Source: a virus
Lineage: Duplodnaviria > Heunggongvirae > Uroviricota > Caudoviricetes
Virus record (IMG/VR): IMGVR_UViG_2681813321_000028
Length of the DNA: 15,746 nucleotides
Strand: one strand, 5' to 3'
Positions within the stretch are counted from its first letter, which is position 1; every line of letters starts with the position of its first letter. This document shows positions 857 to 15,746 of the stretch, in pieces. The notes beneath the pieces were generated by a model. That model made no database searches and had not been told where the DNA came from. It saw only the letters and a program-made list of their open reading frames with translations. Position numbers and translations under genes: made by a program.

Positions 857-886
857 GCCAAAACAGAGAGAGCATTACTGTCTCTG
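857..886 (-). terminator. Putative intrinsic terminator of the PerC-like gene
   Basis: Inverted repeat CAGAGA(864-869)/TCTCTG(881-886) overlapping the stop codon (875-877), followed on the minus strand by a short T-run (plus-strand AAAA 860-863). Confidence 0.3.
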
Positions 887-1162
887 GCAATCTTTATCGC
901 GATAACGCCTGAAGTACCCTCTCGCTTCCTCATCCATACCAAGAGCCGAATGAGTCCGCTTAACTGCCTGTCTTAAATCTCCGAATCTGTCTGTAGTTGC
1001 TGGTGGGCGTGCCGCCTTACGGATACATTCAGAGCGTCTGTTTGCTGCATGTTCACGTTCTTTATCGCCATCTGCCAGCATCATGACTTCTGCCCATCGT
1101 GCGGCAGCTCTCCGGTATAGCCCTTTTGACTCCAGTTCTTCAGCTTTCCTGTCCCTTATCAT
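875..1162 (-). CDS. PerC-family-like small transcriptional regulator (95 aa)
   Basis: ORF with RBS GAGG 5 nt before the ATG and a perfect TATAAT -10 (minus strand, plus coordinates 1176-1181). N-terminal motif EELESKGLYRRAAARWAEVM matches my recollection of the PerC/Pch family signature; not verified by search. Confidence 0.5.
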   Translation of the reverse strand: MIRDRKAEELESKGLYRRAAARWAEVMMLADGDKEREHAANRRSECIRKAARPPATTDRFGDLRQAVKRTHSALGMDEEARGYFRRYRDKDCQRQ

Positions 1163-1191: not shown

Positions 1192-1319
1192 AAAAGGTGT
1201 TGGTTCAGTTGGTTCAGTTGGTTCAATTTGTAAAGATCGTTGTTTTTATTGTGTTTTTTCTGAAATATTGAACCAACATCAACTCATTTTGAACCAACAC
1301 AGCCCAGCTCTGAACCAAC
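1192..1319. repeat. Iteron cluster 1 (ori/crr-like): 3 tandem GTTGGTTCA + AT-rich spacer + 3 inverted TGAACCAAC at 21-bp spacing
   Basis: GTTGGTTCA at 1199-1207, 1208-1216, 1217-1225; AT-rich 1226-1268; TGAACCAAC at 1269-1277, 1290-1298, 1311-1319. Segment 1192-1236 is the exact reverse complement of 7628-7672. Confidence 0.75.
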
Positions 1320-1373
1320 AACACAGCGATAGCTTTGTGATTGGTCCGTTATTTTCTGGCTGATATTTGAGCG

Positions 1374-1404
1374 TATAACAGTGTTATACAGTGGTATACT
1401 GTAT
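1374..1404 (+). promoter_or_regulatory. Two overlapping palindromes (operator-like) immediately upstream of the RHH regulator gene
   Basis: TATAACAgTGTTATA (1374-1388) and ATACAGTggtatACTGTAT (1386-1404), both with perfect 7-bp arms; -10-like TATACT at 1395-1400; lies 18 bp upstream of the ATG at 1422. Confidence 0.5.
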
Positions 1405-1421
1405 GGATATTACTCACTGAT

Positions 1422-1877
1422 ATGGTCTTTGCAATGAGCAAATCTAATCTGGTCGCGTTCCGCATCCCATCTGAATTGCAGGATGAGTTTAATCGGTCTG
1501 TTCTCGCTTCTGGAGGGGATAAAACCTCCTGGCTTGTTGATGCGATTCGCATGAAGCTGGGACAGCCGGAAAAGTCTATTGATTCACGAATGCTTGGGCT
1601 GGTGGAGCGCATGGAAAAAGCCGCTGCGTCGCTTATTGCCGGAAAGCCGAACATCCCACCAAAGCCATATAACGAAACGGCAGTTATAAAGATCATTGCC
1701 GATACCATCCGACAGGGATTTGATAATGGGCGCGTGATAGCTGAACGGATCAATGAAGCAGGCTATCAAACAAAAGCTGGTAAAGCGTGGGATAAAGATA
1801 TTTACAGCGCGTGGAAGCGTCAGGGAAGCAATGCTGAAAAGTTAAAAGCGGTGATTGATTGTAAGGTCAGCGTATAA
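1422..1877 (+). CDS. DNA-binding protein: N-terminal ribbon-helix-helix-like, C-terminal resolvase-type HTH-like (151 aa)
   Basis: ORF 1422-1877. N-terminus NLVAFRIPSELQDEFNRSVLASGGDKTSWLVDAIRMKL fits the strand-helix-turn-helix pattern of RHH proteins; C-terminal IAERINEAGYQTKAGKAWDKDIYSAWKR resembles the DNA-binding tail of serine recombinases. Alternative start ATG 1434; no strong RBS. Confidence 0.6.
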   Translation: MVFAMSKSNLVAFRIPSELQDEFNRSVLASGGDKTSWLVDAIRMKLGQPEKSIDSRMLGLVERMEKAAASLIAGKPNIPPKPYNETAVIKIIADTIRQGFDNGRVIAERINEAGYQTKAGKAWDKDIYSAWKRQGSNAEKLKAVIDCKVSV

Positions 1878-1956
1878 ACATGAGTGCCCATTGGAAAACT
1901 GCTTGGGCCAATACCTTTATACACCAGCAGGTGGTGACGATGGGTGAGGATCAGGC

Positions 1957-2178
1957 ATGAAAGGCAGAACGCCACACATTGAACATCAAGCCAACCACTT
2001 CTCGGATGTTCGCAATGAGATGATTGCCATTCGCGGTGATATGCACGGCTTGGAGCGTCGAATTATTGATAAGATTGATGAAAATAGAGATAAGGCCAGT
2101 GAAAATCAAAAGTGGATCATCGGCCTGTTGATTTTATCAATGCTTATCCCGCTACTTATCGCATTGGTCACAAAATGA
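1957..2178 (+). CDS. Small coiled-coil protein with C-terminal transmembrane anchor (73 aa)
   Basis: RBS GGTGAGGA 1942-1949; C-terminal hydrophobic stretch WIIGLLILSMLIPLLIALV; ATGA overlap with an upstream 26-codon mini-ORF. Confidence 0.5.
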   Translation: MKGRTPHIEHQANHFSDVRNEMIAIRGDMHGLERRIIDKIDENRDKASENQKWIIGLLILSMLIPLLIALVTK

Positions 2179-2461
2179 ATATCCAATGTGTATGCTGTCG
2201 ATGCTACGCGCGCGTACTTGTCGCAAAATATCAGACAAAAGCCAGATTCAGAACGTCGTGATAACCACCAGCACAACAGAGAGGTCATGTAACGCGATTT
2301 ATCACACCAGATACATGTGATTGGTGTACCCGCATAAAACATCGTCATAGCGCGTCCTGTGCGCATATACGCCGATAATCAACACATCACCACCACTCTG
2401 TCTCGTGTAGAGAACAGTTTCATGGTATCCCCCGCCATCGTGTGCGTACTGGTCGGACGCA

Positions 2462-2481
2462 GTTGCAAAAAATTTTGCAAC
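2462..2481. promoter_or_regulatory. 20-bp palindrome GTTGCAAAA-AA-TTTTGCAAC flanked by repeated GCGCGTACTGGTC-type motifs
   Basis: Perfect 9-bp arms. GCGTACTGGTC occurs at 2444-2454 and 2497-2507, with related copies near 2213 and 2577. Function unknown. Confidence 0.3.
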
Positions 2482-2700
2482 TGATACCCCTCGCGCGCGT
2501 ACTGGTCACGAAATTGGTGTTTTGCTGTGGCAGTGATATCAGAAAAATCTTCCTGTTTCACATAAAGCGGATATGCGCGTACTGTAACGGCCCCATCAAC
2601 GGGGAGCGGATTTGAAATCCCGACCCAAGCTATGTACCAAATGCCATGTCTTGGATATATGATGATTGCCATTCTAAACAAAGCTAAAGGGAGGGTTGGT

Positions 2701-3051
2701 GTGAATGCTCAGGCTGTCATCATGGTTTTACTTGGTCTGATTGTCGCAAAACTATATCCAGACTGGTGGAAAGGGGCATTAGCAACTGTCGCCATCTATT
2801 TGCTTTTATCCGTCGTTAAGCGATCGTTCGTTAAGACCGTAAATCAAGCAAAACGTTTCTCATTTAAGAATTTAATAAACTATATTACTGGGCTTATTTT
2901 TTGCCTTTCAATTTTGATCGCTTCAGCTTTTTTGCCCGTATCAATAGCTAATTTTTTTGGCGCACCATATGAGGTAGGTTATCTATTCTCTGTTTTTTGT
3001 CTTGTTCTTTCCCTTCTTTACCTATGGATGAGAGCAAAGAACAAAAATTAG
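2701..3051 (+). CDS. Small polytopic membrane protein (about 116 aa from GTG 2701; ORF open from 2632)
   Basis: Strong RBS AAGGGAGGG (2687-2695) 5 nt before in-frame GTG 2701; alternative ATG 2722. Three to four hydrophobic segments. Markedly AT-rich relative to its neighbours. Confidence 0.5.
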   Translation: MNAQAVIMVLLGLIVAKLYPDWWKGALATVAIYLLLSVVKRSFVKTVNQAKRFSFKNLINYITGLIFCLSILIASAFLPVSIANFFGAPYEVGYLFSVFCLVLSLLYLWMRAKNKN

Positions 3052-3069: not shown

Positions 3070-5175
3070 TTATTGAGATTCTTTTTGTGATGCCTGTGCG
3101 ACTCTGGTGAGCGATTGTGTGACCGTACTGATCGCTCTGTCATATGCTGTGCTACCTTTTGGCGTATTTGCCAGACGTAACAAGGCATTTCGTATAACAG
3201 GGCTTTCGTATGCCTTCGCTGCTCCGCCTACGGCACCAGCAGCAGGAACAACAAACGCAGCCGTTTTTAGCATCCCCGCTAATACTGCTGCGTTTATGAT
3301 GCCACCACCAACTAACAATCCATAAAGCTGCTGACCATTTAAGTTTTGAACGTTCGCTTTTGCCGCGTGTCTTGTATCGTTGAGGTATTTAATAACGCCG
3401 TCCAGTTCCTTTCCATGTACGCCTTTAAAGAAAGTTGCTGATTGCTTCCTGTTCCGGTGTAACGCATTAATAAACTTCTCAACACTGATATTTCCAGACG
3501 GATCAGTCGCCTTATCTACAGCATTCTGAACTATGGCTGCTCGTGCGTTTTGCCTACCATTGTCATCCAGAAGCCTGTAAAGCTGAGAACGTTCTGATGG
3601 GCTTTGGCTAAAAACGAGTTTTGTTACATCCTCAGGCGTGGCCTTGCCGCTGGCTATTGCCTTTTGAACGCGCGTTCTTCCCATCATGTCATTGAATTTA
3701 GACCATGAGCGATCAACCCTTGCCATATTAATGGCTTCGTCTGCTCCAAGATTTTTGGCTACGGCTTTTTTCATATCCGCCGTATATGCCTTGTAGATAA
3801 TATCGCTGGCTTTCTGGAGCGTATCTTTATCAACAGTGTCAGATGACGCCATAAATCGCTTTCGAAGATCGGTTCTGTTTTCCCTCGCCAGACGCAGGTC
3901 ATTTGGTCCGCTGGTGATATCGTCTTTAAATTGCTGCAAGACTTTTACCGCGGCTCTATCCTGAGATTTGCCCGGGCGGCTTAACACGGCAATCTGATTG
4001 TCGATAGCTTTTACCGTGTTTGAGAGATCGACAGGGGTATCCCCCATAGCGTCAATTATGCGGTTATATCGCTTTCCTGCTGCCTCAATGAATTTTTGTT
4101 GCCCTTTAGTCGCAGATTCATAAAGCTGTTTATCAGAAATGCCACCCAGACCATCGCTAAATGTTCTGACTAAATTTTCTCGTGCTTGTTGTTGATTCAG
4201 CCGATTCTTACCGGTTCCAAAAAAAGGAACTCTTTCGCCTAATGTCTGAGCCTGACTCTGCATAAAGGTTTTATCTTTCAGCATGTCACTGGTCATTAAC
4301 GGCAGATTTCTTTCCGATGCAAAGTCGACAGCAGCCTTTGCTTCAGGCGACATATCACCACGAACAGCCCTCGAAACCGCACTCGCTGTATTTTCCAGCC
4401 CCTTACCAATACCACCAATGCCAGCAGAAATTACCGTTTGTAACGGATCAATATCTTCTCCACCAGCAAGGCTGGTGGCTCCCTGTAGTGCTAAATCTGT
4501 AGCTGCTGATTTTCCTATGGCACTAAGCACCGTTCCAGCCCTGCCCGCTGGTGTAAACGCCAACGCATTAGCAAGAAACGAGGTCAGGTCTTGCGGTGAT
4601 AAACCCGGCTTGTTCAGGGCATAATCACCTGATGGCAGAGAAACGATAGTATTCCCCTTCTCATCCTGCCTTAATGTCGCCCCCATTCCCTGAAGAATCT
4701 TTTCCTGAGACGCGTCAGAGCCGAAAAGTTGAGACCATCCAGCCTTTAGGGCATCCATGCTTAGTGAGTTCAATTCTGGGGCAGAGGCGACATTTTGCAG
4801 TCTCTCCATCTCTGGAGTCATTCGGCTTTCGCCTGTTATAGCATCGCGCATCGCAGCCCCAAGACTGGCTCCCTGTTCTGCTGAACGCTCAAGCCCCTCT
4901 CTTTGCTGAGTAGCTAACTTTGCATACCCTGACGCAAGAGAATTATCAGATGATGTATGTTGAATATTTTGAGTTGCTGATTGGGATCGGTCTATTTCAT
5001 TCGTTGATGGTAGTGGATAGGCAGCATAAAAAGCCTGCTTAGCCTGCTCTACACTTTCTCCGGCTTGCGGGGCCACGACTTCATTGAAGTATTGCTCCTG
5101 AGCCTGCGCTTTTTGTTCTGGTGCTAACGCCTGATACTGTGGAGAGGCGATAACATCTTTCCATGCTTTAGCCAT
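3070..5175 (-). CDS. Hypothetical 701-aa protein, Ala/Gln/Ser-rich, with C-terminal Gly/Ala-rich hydrophobic hairpin (predicted membrane insertion)
   Basis: Long uninterrupted ORF; TAATG stop/start overlap with the upstream gene at 5173-5177; C-terminal segment LYGLLVGGGIINAAVLAGMLKTAAFVVPAAGAVGGAAKAY; no catalytic motif recognised by eye. Confidence 0.8.
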   Translation of the reverse strand: MAKAWKDVIASPQYQALAPEQKAQAQEQYFNEVVAPQAGESVEQAKQAFYAAYPLPSTNEIDRSQSATQNIQHTSSDNSLASGYAKLATQQREGLERSAEQGASLGAAMRDAITGESRMTPEMERLQNVASAPELNSLSMDALKAGWSQLFGSDASQEKILQGMGATLRQDEKGNTIVSLPSGDYALNKPGLSPQDLTSFLANALAFTPAGRAGTVLSAIGKSAATDLALQGATSLAGGEDIDPLQTVISAGIGGIGKGLENTASAVSRAVRGDMSPEAKAAVDFASERNLPLMTSDMLKDKTFMQSQAQTLGERVPFFGTGKNRLNQQQARENLVRTFSDGLGGISDKQLYESATKGQQKFIEAAGKRYNRIIDAMGDTPVDLSNTVKAIDNQIAVLSRPGKSQDRAAVKVLQQFKDDITSGPNDLRLARENRTDLRKRFMASSDTVDKDTLQKASDIIYKAYTADMKKAVAKNLGADEAINMARVDRSWSKFNDMMGRTRVQKAIASGKATPEDVTKLVFSQSPSERSQLYRLLDDNGRQNARAAIVQNAVDKATDPSGNISVEKFINALHRNRKQSATFFKGVHGKELDGVIKYLNDTRHAAKANVQNLNGQQLYGLLVGGGIINAAVLAGMLKTAAFVVPAAGAVGGAAKAYESPVIRNALLRLANTPKGSTAYDRAISTVTQSLTRVAQASQKESQ

Positions 5176-6653
5176 TAATCACCCCATAGTGAAGAAAAGT
5201 TACTGCTGGCTGCTGGCTGTGATACCTGCTCAGATTGCGGCAATGTCTGCGACGAAGAAGCAGTTCCTCTGTCAACTGCTGAAATAACCCGCAAAGCATC
5301 ATAAGTTCGACCAGAAGCAGCTTTCAGCGAATTGAACTGGTTTTCCATCTTCCGGCGCTTGGTATCAATGGTTTTTGTGGAATCACCAGGCTGAGGGAAA
5401 TACATTTGATAATATTTGGACATTTCAGCTGGTAGGATAGATGCCCCTGTTTCCTGACGGAGTATTGCCATTATTGCGTCATTAGCATTAACAACGTATT
5501 GCTGCTCTGCTGGGCTGAGCGTTAAGTTAGCCAGCGTCCCATTACCCAAAGCATTATTAATGATCGCCACTCGCTGTGGGCTAAGCTGGTCTTTCAGTGT
5601 ATCTATTGAATCAAGAGCATCCCTAACCCTGTATGCAAATCCAGCAGCTTTTTTAGCCCCTTCTGGCGACTTTTCCATGATCTTTTGGGCTGTTGGCAAA
5701 GCTATTGGACGAAACCCATCTCCAGATATTGGCTGGTTTAGTTTTCCCTGCTCTTCACTTCCGTCTGTGTAGTATTTTGTGACAGTGCCATCATCGTTTT
5801 CTCTAACACTCATTAATTTTTTGGCGTTTATATTAATTCCAGCCGCTGCCGCAAATGCCGCCGCCCCCTCTGGATCCGCCTTTAACATTTGAGCGTACTG
5901 ATTGTAATTCTGCATTGCTGCTGTTGGTGCATATGCTGACGTTAACGCATTTGCTCGGCTAATATCCTGCCCTCTCGCCTGAAGTGCTTCGCCAGCCTGA
6001 TTGCTGCGGATTGTCTCTGCCAACTTGCCACGCTCAATATCCCGACCTTCCATTTGATCTTTGATATCGAAATACTTCTCATGACCGAGAGAAAACAGCG
6101 CCAGATTACCTGCGAAATGCTGGAAGCCCTGCGGGTCATTAACCTGCATTTCAGCAATAGTTTCTGGAGGGATACCTAAACGACGCATCTCCTGCTCATT
6201 ATCCATCATGAACCTGCCAAATGCGCCCTGACCAAGCGATGAGGCTACCTGTGCTTTGAGCGCCAGATTGCCATAATCATCCCTTTGAGCATCATCGACA
6301 TAACTCATCCCTTTACGGACTTCCTCAAACTCTTCTGGGAATGCTGTAATAAGATTACGCATCTGCTCCCTGTCACCGGACGCATAAGCATCTGCATAAG
6401 CTTTCTGGAATGCCGCTTTACGCTCCTGCTGTTGCTGCTGCTTATAAATATCAGCAACGCCAGCCAGACCACGAAGACCTGTCAGAGCAACGTTATTTGC
6501 ACCTGAGCGAGCCAGTTCATTGTTTTCGCGGATCAGACCAAGCGTTGCGTTAATGTCGCTTGCCTTTGGCGCATTCTCATTTTGCGTACCGATGCCAGCC
6601 AGAAAACCACCAGAATTAATACCCTGTTGCCACGTAGCCATTGATTTACCCAC
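5175..6653 (-). CDS. Hypothetical 492-aa protein, low-complexity (poly-Q, Ala-rich), translationally coupled to the 701-aa gene
   Basis: ORF from GTG 6653 (or ATG 6641) to TAA 5175-5177; overlaps the upstream 57-aa ORF stop; contains QQQQQ and Gly-rich N-terminus GINSGGFLAGIG. Confidence 0.8.
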   Translation of the reverse strand: MGKSMATWQQGINSGGFLAGIGTQNENAPKASDINATLGLIRENNELARSGANNVALTGLRGLAGVADIYKQQQQQERKAAFQKAYADAYASGDREQMRNLITAFPEEFEEVRKGMSYVDDAQRDDYGNLALKAQVASSLGQGAFGRFMMDNEQEMRRLGIPPETIAEMQVNDPQGFQHFAGNLALFSLGHEKYFDIKDQMEGRDIERGKLAETIRSNQAGEALQARGQDISRANALTSAYAPTAAMQNYNQYAQMLKADPEGAAAFAAAAGININAKKLMSVRENDDGTVTKYYTDGSEEQGKLNQPISGDGFRPIALPTAQKIMEKSPEGAKKAAGFAYRVRDALDSIDTLKDQLSPQRVAIINNALGNGTLANLTLSPAEQQYVVNANDAIMAILRQETGASILPAEMSKYYQMYFPQPGDSTKTIDTKRRKMENQFNSLKAASGRTYDALRVISAVDRGTASSSQTLPQSEQVSQPAASSNFSSLWGD

Positions 6654-7554: not shown

Positions 7555-7672
7555 GTTGGTTCAAAATGCCGTGTTGTTGGTTCAGTGTTGGTTCAATAAA
7601 AAGAATAAAATCCTTATAAAACAATACTCTTTACAAATTGAACCAACTGAACCAACTGAACCAACACCTTTT
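7555..7672. repeat. Iteron cluster 2 (ori/crr-like), mirror image of cluster 1, immediately downstream of the primase gene
   Basis: GTTGGTTCA at 7555-7563, 7576-7584, 7587-7595; AT-rich spacer; tandem TGAACCAAC at 7639-7647, 7648-7656, 7657-7665; 7628-7672 is the exact reverse complement of 1192-1236. Confidence 0.75.
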
Positions 7673-11938: not shown

Positions 11939-12424
11939 GTGCCACCTCCATGCGGATACGACCAGCAAAAAAGCAGACGTGATCGCGCACCAGAGAACGG
12001 CGAGCATCGCGTTCAGACTCGGCAGCAATATGATGAATTTTGGCGGTAATTGTCGGGCAATCGCGGCGAACTGCGGCGATAATCCAGATAAATTGCGGTT
12101 TTTGGGTAGGGGTAGTAGCCAGCATGTGGCAGCCTCCATTCGATAGCATGTAACGCTACCACCGGAAACGCCAATTTCGCTGGTGGTAGCCCAGACAGGG
12201 TTGGCGTAACCGGCTCGAATGGATACCGGCGCTTCCGAAGAAGCCCCTGCCTGAGCCACCATTGATTGACAAAGGCGCTGGATTATACACCAACGCCCAA
12301 AAAATGGGTGAGTCAGACCTACGACATAAAAAAAGACGCTCGGCGCGTCATATGTCGCCATTCGATTTACCAGGACGCCAATCCCGGCACCCGTTTTATG
12401 AGGTGCCTTATAACCATAAACCGT

Positions 12425-13789: not shown

Positions 13790-13871
13790 TTTCAGTCTCC
13801 GTTAGGCGGCGTTAAACGGTAACCGGCTCATTTAAACCGTCTGGTCTGTTTCCTCCGGCTCTACAAAAATA

Positions 13872-14549
13872 ATGTCCATCATTTTTAATGGACACTATCG
13901 TATGAAACACCGGACCTGGATCACTGAAGCTTTACGTCTTCACTTTGAAGAACATTTACCCCGGGTTGTGGCCGGGCGTCGCCTGGGTGTACCAAAATCA
14001 ACAGTTTGTAGTATGTTCGTGCGCTTTCGGAGAGCTGGCCTTTCGTGGCCTTTGCCCGCAGGCATGTCGGAGCAGGAACTTGATGCCTGCCTTTACGGAC
14101 AATTTTCCACGGTACCAGTCGTACGTCCTGAAAGCACCGTTATATCCGAAGCCCCCGTGGTAAAAAAACGTCCCCGGCGGCCCAACTTCCCTTATGAGTT
14201 TAAAATCGCCTTAGTGGAGCAGTCACTGCAGCCCGGAGCCTGTGTGGCGCAGATCGCCCGGGAAAACGGAATCAACGATAACCTGCTCTTCAACTGGCGC
14301 CATCAATACCGGAAAGGTGGCCTGCTGCCTTCCGGAAAAAATATGCCGGCACTGCTTCCCGTGACGTTAACGCCGGAGCCGGATAATAAAATCCCGGCCC
14401 CCGCACAGGAACCAGAGCAGATAAATACACCGTCCGACAGTCTGTGTTGTGAGCTGGTTCTGCCGGCCGGAACTCTCAGGCTTAAAGGTAAACTGACGCC
14501 GGCGTTATTACAGACACTTATCCGCGAAATAAAAGGGAGCAGCCACTGA
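13872..14549 (+). CDS. tnpA: IS66-family accessory protein TnpA (orfA) with an approximately 95-aa N-terminal HTH-like extension
   Basis: C-terminal two-thirds (KKRPRRPNFPYEFKIALVEQSLQPGACVAQIARENGINDNLLFNWRHQYRKGG) matches IS66 orfA as I recall it; the N-terminal part (WITEALRLHFEEHLPRVVAGRRLGVPKSTV...) looks like an HTH from a transposase N-terminus; true start uncertain (ATG 13872 or 13902). Confidence 0.65.
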   Translation: MSIIFNGHYRMKHRTWITEALRLHFEEHLPRVVAGRRLGVPKSTVCSMFVRFRRAGLSWPLPAGMSEQELDACLYGQFSTVPVVRPESTVISEAPVVKKRPRRPNFPYEFKIALVEQSLQPGACVAQIARENGINDNLLFNWRHQYRKGGLLPSGKNMPALLPVTLTPEPDNKIPAPAQEPEQINTPSDSLCCELVLPAGTLRLKGKLTPALLQTLIREIKGSSH

Positions 14550-14896
14550 TGATATCTCTCCCTGCAGGTTCGCGTATCTGGCTGGTTGCAGGTATCACCG
14601 ATATGCGAAATGGCTTTAACGGCCTGGCATCAAAAGTTCAGAACGTCCTGAAGGATGACCCGTTCTCCGGACACCTGTTCATCTTCCGCGGACGCCGGGG
14701 TGACCAGATAAAAGTGTTGTGGGCTGACAGTGACGGACTGTGCCTCTTCACCAAACGCCTGGAGCGGGGCCGCTTCGTCTGGCCAGTCACCCGTGACGGC
14801 AAGGTGCACCTTACTCCGGCTCAGTTATCCATGCTTCTTGAAGGTATCAACTGGAAGCACCCGAAACGAACGGAACGCGCTGGAATCCGCATATAA
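14549..14896 (+). CDS. tnpB: IS66-family TnpB (orf2), 115 aa
   Basis: MISLPAGSRIWLVAGITDMRNGFNGLA...HLFIFRGRRGDQIKVLWAD is the hallmark IS66 TnpB sequence. Confidence 0.9.
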   Translation: MISLPAGSRIWLVAGITDMRNGFNGLASKVQNVLKDDPFSGHLFIFRGRRGDQIKVLWADSDGLCLFTKRLERGRFVWPVTRDGKVHLTPAQLSMLLEGINWKHPKRTERAGIRI

Positions 14897-14915
14897 CCCG
14901 TTGTAAAGTGAGGAT

Positions 14916-15746
14916 ATGGACACCTCACTTGCTCATGAGAACGCCCGCCTGCGGGCACTGTTGCAGACGCAACAGGACACCATCCGCCAGATGGCTGAAT
15001 ACAACCGCCTGCTCTCACAGCGGGTGGCGGCTTATGCTTCCGAAATCAACCGGCTGAAGGCGCTGGTTGCGAAACTGCAACGTATGCAGTTCGGTAAAAG
15101 CTCAGAAAAACTTCGTGCAAAAACCGAACGGCAGATACAGGAAGCACAGGAGCGAATCAGCGCACTTCAGGAAGAAATGGCGGAAACGCTGGGTGAGCAA
15201 TATGACCCGGTACTGCCATCCGCCCTGCGCCAGTCTTCAGCCCGTAAACCGTTACCGGCCTCACTTCCCCGTGAAACCCGGGTTATCCGGCCGGAAGAGG
15301 AATGCTGTCCTGCCTGTGGTGGTGAACTCAGTTCTCTGGGATGTGATGTGTCAGAGCAACTGGAGCTTATCAGCAGCGCCTTTAAGGTTATCGAAACACA
15401 ACGTCCGAAACAGGCCTGTTGCCGGTGCGACCATATCGTGCAGGCACCAGTACCTTCAAAACCCATTGCACGCAGTTATGCCGGAGCGGGGCTTCTGGCC
15501 CATGTTGTCACCGGGAAATATGCAGACCATCTGCCGTTATACCGCCAGTCAGAAATATACCGTCGTCAGGGAGTGGAGCTGAGCCGTGCCACACTGGGGC
15601 GCTGGACAGGTGCTGTTGCTGAACTGCTGGAGCCGCTGTATGACGTCCTGCGCCAGTATGTGCTGATGCCCGGTAAAGTCCATGCTGATGATATCCCCGT
15701 CCCGGTCCAGGAGCCGGGCAGCGGTAAAACCCGGACAGCCCGGCTG
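14916..15746 (+). CDS. tnpC: IS66-family transposase TnpC, N-terminal 277 codons (3' truncated by window end); not in the supplied ORF track
   Basis: ATG 14916 preceded by GTGAGGA; frame open to 15746; leucine-zipper-like N-terminus and CCPACGG...C...CCRCDH zinc-finger motif typical of IS66 transposases. Confidence 0.9.
   Translation, partial: MDTSLAHENARLRALLQTQQDTIRQMAEYNRLLSQRVAAYASEINRLKALVAKLQRMQFGKSSEKLRAKTERQIQEAQERISALQEEMAETLGEQYDPVLPSALRQSSARKPLPASLPRETRVIRPEEECCPACGGELSSLGCDVSEQLELISSAFKVIETQRPKQACCRCDHIVQAPVPSKPIARSYAGAGLLAHVVTGKYADHLPLYRQSEIYRRQGVELSRATLGRWTGAVAELLEPLYDVLRQYVLMPGKVHADDIPVPVQEPGSGKTRTARL

Follow-up and report, generated by a model that had tools for sequence, protein, structure and literature searches.

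What do the genes on the plus strand between positions 1,374 and 3,051 of the viral DNA record IMGVR_UViG_2681813321_000028 (IMG/VR; Caudoviricetes) do, and do they belong together? The stretch analysed, 15,746 nucleotides in length and referred to here as the window, encodes in this interval a putative ribbon-helix-helix (RHH) regulator, a small protein of 73 amino acids (aa) and a 116-aa protein, the last two predicted to be membrane-bound, and an earlier note had taken the three genes for one dedicated module. Comparison with related loci did not bear this out: the regulator is a core gene, the two membrane-protein genes are swapped independently, and the 116-aa gene follows gene 16 of P22-like phages. 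The stretch is the variable accessory end of a phage-inducible chromosomal island (PICI) of the EcCIMP1 kind, a satellite of P22-like phages. EcCIMP1 itself comes from E. coli MP1, and the P22-like phage Kapi1 mobilises it (Pick et al. 2025, PMC11773190). The three units of the stretch, the core regulator, a cargo slot and a slot corresponding to that of P22 sieA, exchange independently. On balance we lean towards a reading in which this end carries an autorepressor, a cargo slot and, in the 116-aa protein, an analogue of the P22 superinfection-exclusion protein SieA that would exclude P22-like phages.

The position of the 116-aa gene was compared across loci. In the P22 record gene 16 is convergent with sieA, behind which lie orf59a and mnt in the orientation of sieA; the window shows this order too, with the 116-aa gene after the gene 16 homolog, then the 73-aa gene and then the RHH gene. 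In all ten contexts that were examined, a convergent gene 16 of the window type was the neighbour, and the 116-aa gene began its series 17-21 bp downstream of it. These contexts were islands (E. coli L004, L005 and L056, and one Edwardsiella island), three P22-like prophages (E. coli 20AR0300, E. coli APEC O1, Yersinia enterocolitica) and three metagenomic contigs in which the proteins were 35-37% identical. In these loci gp16 identity was 60-99%, and gp20 identity ran from 24% to 94%. In the 20AR0300 and APEC O1 prophages the homolog lies between gene 16 and the Arc/Ant/tailspike genes; in the Yersinia prophage its neighbours are gene 16 and, on the other side, the tailspike (head-binding) gene. 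In the P22-like prophages L055, L073 and L058 the homologs have the position of sieA itself, flanked by genes 16 and 9 and convergent with the former. The 116-aa gene travels with gene 16 and not with the regulator, and is present in P22-like prophages that have no such regulator.

Pairwise comparison of the islands gave the boundaries of this slot. Window positions 2705-3049 are replaced in island L001 by a 204-aa open reading frame (ORF) that shares the Shine-Dalgarno sequence, the GTG start codon and the downstream hairpin, so that one cassette has been exchanged for another exactly from start to stop. The separate acquisition of the AT-rich membrane gene, suggested earlier on grounds of composition, is upheld by this exact replacement. 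The 204-aa product matched P22 SieA in BLASTP (8e-8), contains a RYPGEA motif, matched phrog_7745 (4e-4) and bore a weak PF26849 tag; judged by these matches it is homologous to SieA, and it has the length of type B. P22-like phages are excluded by the type B SieA that prophage HS1 encodes (PMC10883804). Other islands carry in the slot a 132-aa protein with a signal peptide or, beside a gp16 of the SLT type, a 232-aa lipoprotein; both are candidates for exclusion at the level of the envelope, and the lipoprotein is a candidate for the superinfection immunity of EcCIMP1. Every occupant of the slot known so far is an envelope protein. The census of slot alleles gave 229, 126 and 103 of 5,426 complete E. 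coli genomes, the first figure being that of the 116-aa gene, and every listed copy is annotated as a hypothetical protein. The GC fraction was 0.34 for P22 sieA and 0.33 for the 204-aa allele, against 0.50 and 0.47 for gene 16; for the 116-aa gene (2701-3051) it was 0.373, against 0.47 in the neighbouring gene 16 homolog, in agreement with the AT-rich patch previously described. Because the 116-aa gene occupies the sieA slot and has a SieA homolog as its allelic alternative, superinfection exclusion is the best reading of it. The earlier note had named superinfection exclusion, abortive infection and toxin-like functions together; the first of these holds up best, and no toxin or abortive-infection signature was found in the three proteins.

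The 116-aa ORF appears to be a genuine gene. Its frame is open from 2632, and GTG 2701 is the most likely start because it is preceded by a Shine-Dalgarno sequence (GGGAGGG, 2689-2695), because a GTG or ATG start codon and a protein beginning MN(A/G/Y)Q are conserved in distant homologs, and because the allelic replacements begin at 2705. The ratio of nonsynonymous to synonymous substitution rates (dN/dS) was 0.14-0.46 against homologs 74-88% identical, 0.14 against the Yersinia homolog and 0.78 against the near-identical L056 copy. The low ratios and the conserved GTG start show that this is a real gene under purifying selection. The family comprises 19 clusters at 90% identity; a profile hidden Markov model search of 1.84 billion representatives returned 7 clusters at 50% identity, all of the same family, and all clusters that bear a source name are called "hypothetical protein". 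As had been anticipated, the protein has several hydrophobic segments, four by the Kyte-Doolittle scale (about 3-19, 23-39, 62-78 and 92-108), matching four helices in the AlphaFold2 (AF2) model. The loop at 40-58 and the C-terminus are predicted to be cytoplasmic since they are basic (positive-inside rule), and this would place the N-terminus in the cytoplasm too, giving a modelled N-in/C-in topology. A YPDWW motif is nearly invariant in the family, and the KLYPDWW segment that contains it would join helices 1 and 2 on the periplasmic side.

Under the favoured reading, the 116-aa protein would be made in the resident cell either from its own promoter in the spacer upstream or by read-through from the regulator promoter, the latter being possible because no terminator-like site was found between the three plus-strand genes. 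In prophage versions of the gene, TGGTATCCT or TGGTAGAGT precedes the start codon by about 25 nt. Once in the inner membrane the protein would, like P22 SieA, stop incoming P22-like phages from assembling or using the gp20/gp16 conduit that delivers their DNA. That it excludes P22-like phages in this way is an analogy to which we give a roughly even chance. Good support stands behind the structural and evolutionary account of the locus: gene order, the limits of the cassettes, the link to gene 16, the conservation and co-variation of the operator and the absence of homology to SieA were seen directly.

The regulator, in turn, is a core gene of the island family across Enterobacterales. Homologs numbered 371 at E <= 1e-3, mostly of about 143 aa, in Escherichia, Klebsiella, Serratia, Pantoea, Erwinia, Providencia, Morganella, Photorhabdus and other genera. 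Neither membrane gene accompanies it in more than 40 loci of other genera, and many regulator loci have a homolog of the same primase a few kb away but lack gp16 as well as the 73-aa and 116-aa genes. A 151-aa ORF (1422-1877) had been reported and does exist, although the homologs in other genera and RefSeq favour the second ATG and hence a slightly shorter protein. In the predicted architecture a strand-helix-helix forms the N-terminus and a domain of four helices, resembling a helix-turn-helix (HTH), the C-terminus; a long helix lies at 49-68. An AF2 monomer gave coil at 1-12 and helices at 13-25 and 32-42, with a low predicted local distance difference test (pLDDT) score; pairwise comparison with Mnt gave E 1e-3, and phrog_30270 was matched at 2.8e-4.

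Two palindromes with 7-bp arms had been noted upstream of this gene. Both are present, the first beginning one base earlier and having arms of 8 bp. By itself the pair is unremarkable, because the window contains 26 perfect inverted repeats with 7-bp arms, nested ones included (8.8 +/- 2.9 in shuffled sequences). Palindrome 1, on the other hand, is non-random, since 21 other loci of several genera have kept it, always equally far from an extended -10 element; palindrome 2 is confined to E. coli, Klebsiella, Raoultella and Pluralibacter loci. A single upstream layout, with a repeat element abutting an extended -10 that ends 29-34 nt before the start codon, was found in 42 regulator loci, and in 36 of these the -10 reads TGnTAnnnT. 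Two operator types were distinguished. The inverted repeat GTATAAC-N3-GTYATAC occurs in 22 loci, and all 22 proteins start MSKS(N/T)L(V/I)AFR, while the direct repeat GTCTWAC, in two or three copies, occurs in 20 loci, where all 20 proteins have (L/I)SVTFR. No further operator copies were found elsewhere in the window. RHH proteins such as Arc, Mnt and CopG read bases with their N-terminal strand, which makes this perfect association of operator and beta-strand a prediction of autoregulation. The conserved operator-promoter layout and the co-variation support the earlier proposal, and the regulator is very probably RHH-like and autoregulated through the palindromes. DNA binding is most likely: a dimer or higher oligomer would bind the 17-bp palindrome abutting its own extended -10, with the second palindrome overlapping the -10, and would repress its own transcription together with that of any co-transcribed downstream genes. 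The protein would then be an uncharacterised but conventional autorepressor.

Several observations weigh against the picture drawn so far. The 116-aa protein is shorter than SieA (116 against 164-210 aa) and resembles it in no comparison made: BLASTP against P22 SieA was not significant (E 0.89), phrog_7745 was not matched (P22 SieA matched it at 9e-109), the family alignment lacks the conserved cytoplasmic motif FxRYPxEAxxFNK (PMC10883804), which the 204-aa allele has as RYPGEA, and hhalign of the family profile against a profile of SieA types A and B, type C not being included, gave a probability of 0.4%. Its AF2 model is of low confidence (pLDDT 65), and a Foldseek search with it in BFVD found nothing significant, the neighbours being weak holin matches (E 0.37, probability 0.25). 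No convincing sigma-70 promoter lies directly upstream of the gene in the window. Tight linkage to one gp16 type would also be expected from physical adjacency alone, and EcCIMP1, the only tested relative, is without the gene. For the regulator, hhalign aligned residues 7-45 in register with Arc/Mnt RHH proteins at E 1.7e-3 and a probability of 15.6%, a weak support for the fold, and no match was obtained in Pfam or among PDB sequences. The co-variation, moreover, splits just two clades and may have been caused by one historical switch. As to the island, homology to its sister islands stops at about 13819, at an IS66-family insertion (13819-15746), and the alpA and integrase end is lost from the window.

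Being small, with four hydrophobic helices and a C-terminus that is basic, the 116-aa protein could also be a holin-like or membrane-depolarising effector, one that kills or arrests the infected cell by abortive infection and leaves DNA entry unblocked. The best structural neighbours in BFVD are indeed holins, although the matches fall far short of significance and derive from a low-confidence model, and sister islands have AbiD in the neighbouring cargo slot. The gene is nevertheless convergent to the late operon and outside any lysis cassette, its allelic alternative is a homolog of SieA, which blocks injection without killing the cell (PMC10883804), and the 229 E. coli genomes that carry it have no linked antitoxin-like gene. 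We regard such an effector as unlikely.

Slightly less likely still is a moron with a host-directed function, or an accessory to gp16 that, for example, shields the host membrane from the island's own gp16. Transcription of the 116-aa gene runs against the late operon, so the protein would not be co-expressed with gp16, and the same gp16 (98% identical) works where the slot is filled by a homolog of SieA or by a periplasmic protein, so that the 116-aa protein is dispensable for gp16. Set against this are its co-inheritance with one gp16 type across 35-99% identity, the relaxed dN/dS at short distances (0.43-0.78) and the lack of homology to any exclusion protein found.

To a single autoregulated operon, running from the regulator through the 73-aa gene to the 116-aa gene and encoding a membrane toxin or abortive-infection module silenced by the RHH protein as repressor or antitoxin, we give the same low probability as to the moron, since the shared strand, the missing terminator, a good Shine-Dalgarno sequence for the 73-aa gene 80 nt past the regulator stop codon and the presence of the regulator gene before the exact 73-aa protein in six of six cases among the matches listed are offset by the many regulator loci in other genera with neither membrane gene, the independent replacement of the two membrane genes, minus-strand genes between the regulator and the sieA slot in L002 and L004, the occurrence of the 116-aa gene in P22-like prophages without the regulator, and database results for the three proteins at chance level only. 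These results were an absence of matches in PADLOC and, in NCBIfam and a Pfam library that did not contain the PF26849 model, sub-threshold noise with nothing near the curated cut-offs. No member of the 116-aa family bore a precomputed PF26849 tag.

Exclusion by a SieA analogue, then, is the reading we carry forward. To our knowledge, SieA is the only characterised system that blocks the ejection-protein conduit of podoviruses. An unrelated protein in the sieA slot, tied to one type of gp16, would if exclusion is true be an independent route to a SieA-type mechanism, and would help to address how SieA tolerates very divergent gp16 and gp20 (PMC10883804). A more tentative proposal, which we hold to be somewhat less probable than not, is that to the three classes of inner-membrane superinfection-exclusion proteins the 116-aa family adds a fourth, with no sequence relation to them, aimed at the gp16/gp20 conduit and common to P22-like prophages and their satellites. 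If so, the 116-aa gene and the ejection-protein genes of the satellite would make up a portable entry and exclusion cassette, and the satellite would both supply conduit proteins to the virion and decide which related phages inject its host. Satellites of P22-like phages possess a sieA slot beside their own ejection-protein genes, and this bears on the superinfection immunity reported for EcCIMP1, though EcCIMP1 has another gene there. The slot alleles, so far hypothetical proteins only, gain an annotation. The regulator family offers a testable system of co-variation between operator type and beta-strand, and marks the fixed border of a defence hotspot in Enterobacterales. The island itself is of a known kind; what is new is the 116-aa gene as a sequence-unrelated occupant of the sieA slot and a good candidate for an exclusion protein.

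Features of the window and of related loci. Positions are those of the window unless a locus is named.
Feature	Position	Strand	Remark
Iteron cluster upstream of regulator gene	1199..1319		six exact TGAACCAAC: three in tandem on one strand, three at 21-bp spacing on the other
Operator palindrome 1, GTATAACA-G-TGTTATAC, 17 bp, perfect, 8-bp arms	1373..1389		directly upstream of extended -10
Palindrome 2, ATACAGT-GGTAT-ACTGTAT	1386..1404		overlaps putative extended -10 TGGTATACT (1392-1400)
RHH-type regulator gene (putative), 147 aa	1434..1877	+	alternative start 1422 gives 151 aa
Variable cargo slot A	1833..2197		last 15 regulator codons and 73-aa gene; replaced in L002 and L004
73-aa tail-anchored membrane protein gene (predicted)	1957..2178	+	PHROG 6324 match
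Conserved non-coding spacer of E. coli islands	2198..2626		GCGCGTACTKGTC repeats at 2210, 2442 and 2495; 22-bp palindrome 2461-2482
116-aa four-transmembrane inner-membrane protein gene (predicted), in sieA slot	2701..3051	+	GTG start; candidate superinfection-exclusion protein
Hairpin TTAGCCAT-CC-ATGGCTAA	3046..3067		18-bp gap between convergent 116-aa gene and gene 16 homolog
P22 gene-16-type ejection (injection) protein gene, 701 aa	3070..5175	-	constant neighbour of 116-aa gene family
P22 gene-20-type ejection protein gene, 492 aa	5175..6653	-	PF16928, 5.6e-84
HTH_Tnp_1 ORF	13872-14549		IS66-family insertion
TnpB_IS66 ORF	14549-14896		IS66-family insertion
132-aa protein with signal peptide, slot B occupant	L069:6741-7142	+	in 126 E. 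coli genomes
232-aa lipoprotein beside SLT-type gp16	L065:12632-13330 and L068:6765-7463	-	TraT match weak, E 0.09, not significant
Spacer-repeat sites in other loci	L009:6788, L010:5674, L017:8977(-), L022:7933, L064:392

The window DNA was matched to E. coli chromosomes. The island there is about 16 kb long and has a fixed order: genes for a tyrosine integrase and an AlpA-type HTH regulator, antA/B, ash, a TOPRIM/DUF927 primase gene, the P22 gene-20-type and gene-16-type ejection protein genes, variable cargo, the RHH gene and PerC. The window holds the portion from antA/B onward, with the primase, ash and antA/B genes present and int and alpA not included, on a backbone that is that of the published EcCIMP1 (L065). 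The sister islands L001-L003, of about 15 kb, all have the integrase, the AlpA-type regulator and the primase and lack capsid, tail and lysis genes. Integration sites adjoin paoD or lie in the yicC-dinD interval, and some version of the region, in many combinations, is present in about 618 of the 5,426 complete E. coli genomes. Helper-phage induction and packaging have been demonstrated for EcCIMP1 with Kapi1 only (PMC11773190). Among 50,697 phage records no match was found to the region or its spacer by megablast or blastn, nor to the regulator or the 116-aa protein by tblastn.

The ejection-protein genes (3070-6653, gp20 and gp16) are the sole virion genes of the island; the relatives L056 and L065 add gp7 and gp14/DUF2824. 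A satellite that supplies its own DNA-delivery proteins might alter entry or evade exclusion of the SieA type. The 116-aa gene converges on this large operon, as the earlier note had said, with stop codons at 3051 and 3070 and the intervening hairpin looking like a terminator for the minus-strand operon. Divergent from the RHH gene is a gene for a PerC-family regulator (875-1162, minus strand; Pfam 2.6e-33); the PerC homolog of EcCIMP1 is reported to act on LEE1 as a repressor and not as an activator (PMC11773190). Two Rfam matches above gathering scores, to C4 antisense RNA (12179-12266, minus strand, 79.5 bits) and isrK (12329-12406, minus strand, 67.1 bits), lie inside an ORF annotated as an ash family protein that adjoins antA/B, and suggest that the island has a c4-icd-ant control module like that of P1/P7 immI.

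Slot A differs in content from island to island. L002 has a minus-strand AbiD gene (PADLOC 7e-58), and L004 a gene for an ImmA/IrrE-family metallopeptidase (PADLOC CapP model, 8e-25) with a 125-aa gene. Across 40 loci the 3.6 kb downstream of the regulator gene are highly variable and rich in defence and toxin-antitoxin genes, among them PDC-M18, SoFic, Shosta, AbiD, PsyrA, RnlAB and PIN, and the 3' end of the regulator gene is for that reason the fixed border of a cargo hotspot. In the window the 73-aa protein has, as described before, one C-terminal hydrophobic segment (residues 54-72, Kyte-Doolittle 2.8). It showed no similarity to P22 orf59a, and the context of a homolog in a Klebsiella phage was uninformative. 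Two further assignments were considered. A likeness to tail-anchored proteins of the XhlA type had no backing in Pfam, and a pair of RHH antitoxin and 73-aa toxin was rejected, the RHH gene being conserved without the 73-aa partner in other genera.

Between the 73-aa ORF and the membrane ORF lie 520 bp, in which the repeat-rich spacer reported earlier was recovered, with five GCGCGTACTG-like copies besides the 22-bp palindrome. The spacer is kept in all E. coli islands of the family, EcCIMP1 included, whatever the flanks. The exact 13-mer of its repeats was also found in the cargo regions of Serratia, Rosenbergiella, Buttiauxella and Photorhabdus islands, and a distantly related 116-aa gene homolog has it upstream; in EcCIMP1 a version of the repeat of about 45 nt forms a direct repeat flanking the interval from PerC through slot A. 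No match to the spacer was found in Rfam, folding z-scores of -1.2 and -0.3 indicated no stable RNA fold, and a scan of it found neither a sigma-70 promoter nor a terminator. In tblastx it matched only the same spacer of EcCIMP1, and did so in several frames simultaneously, a pattern that gives no hint of a coding remnant.

The iteron cluster that precedes the regulator recurs, inverted, at 7555-7665, directly 3' of the primase gene. Between them the two clusters contain TGAACCAAC in twelve exact copies, and with at most one mismatch there are 18 matches where 3.9 are expected. The 9-mer also precedes the RHH gene or its promoter in islands of Pantoea, Erwinia, Rosenbergiella, Mixta and Cedecea. 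The two clusters look like a two-site replication origin, comparable to ori and crr of P4.

Comparison with known systems places each unit of the locus. Like the defence hotspots of P4-like satellites (Rousset et al. 2022, PMC9122126), the cargo slot holds variable anti-phage genes at a fixed position between conserved genes; the island belongs to another satellite family, without psu, sid and delta, and its flanks are formed on one side by the RHH gene's 3' end and on the other by the primase or ejection genes. The regulator has a predicted N-terminal strand-helix-helix with an F-R-x-P signature like that of P22 Mnt and Arc and, like them, a putative operator overlapping its own promoter, and it shares with mnt an equal relative position in the order gene 16, sieA, small ORF, mnt. 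It differs in that sequence similarity is marginal, a C-terminal helical domain of about 70 aa is added, PerC is the divergent gene where arc-ant would be, and it is a core gene of satellite islands and not a phage gene. With EcCIMP1 the window shares antA/B, ash, the TOPRIM/DUF927 primase, the P22-type ejection-protein genes, the conserved spacer and the terminal PerC. In EcCIMP1 and the sister islands int and an alpA-type HTH gene come in addition, and the sister islands use the same integration region. In EcCIMP1, however, alpA_1 takes the place of the RHH gene, gp16 is of another, SLT-containing type followed by the lipoprotein gene, and neither the 116-aa gene nor sieA is present; the window copy, by contrast, is truncated by the IS66-family insertion. 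The closest parallel for the 116-aa protein is SieA (PF26849; types A, B and C; Leavitt et al. 2024, PMC10883804). The 116-aa gene is found on satellite islands as well, whereas sieA was found only in P22-like prophages (PMC10883804), and the two proteins share neither sequence nor profile similarity. Both genes nonetheless lie immediately downstream of gene 16 and convergent with it, both are far richer in AT than the genes beside them, both are found in P22-like prophages, and the 116-aa gene is swapped exactly with a SieA homolog; SieA is a polytopic inner-membrane protein, as the 116-aa protein is predicted to be. The 116-aa family is most likely a non-homologous analogue of SieA, in position and, probably, in function.

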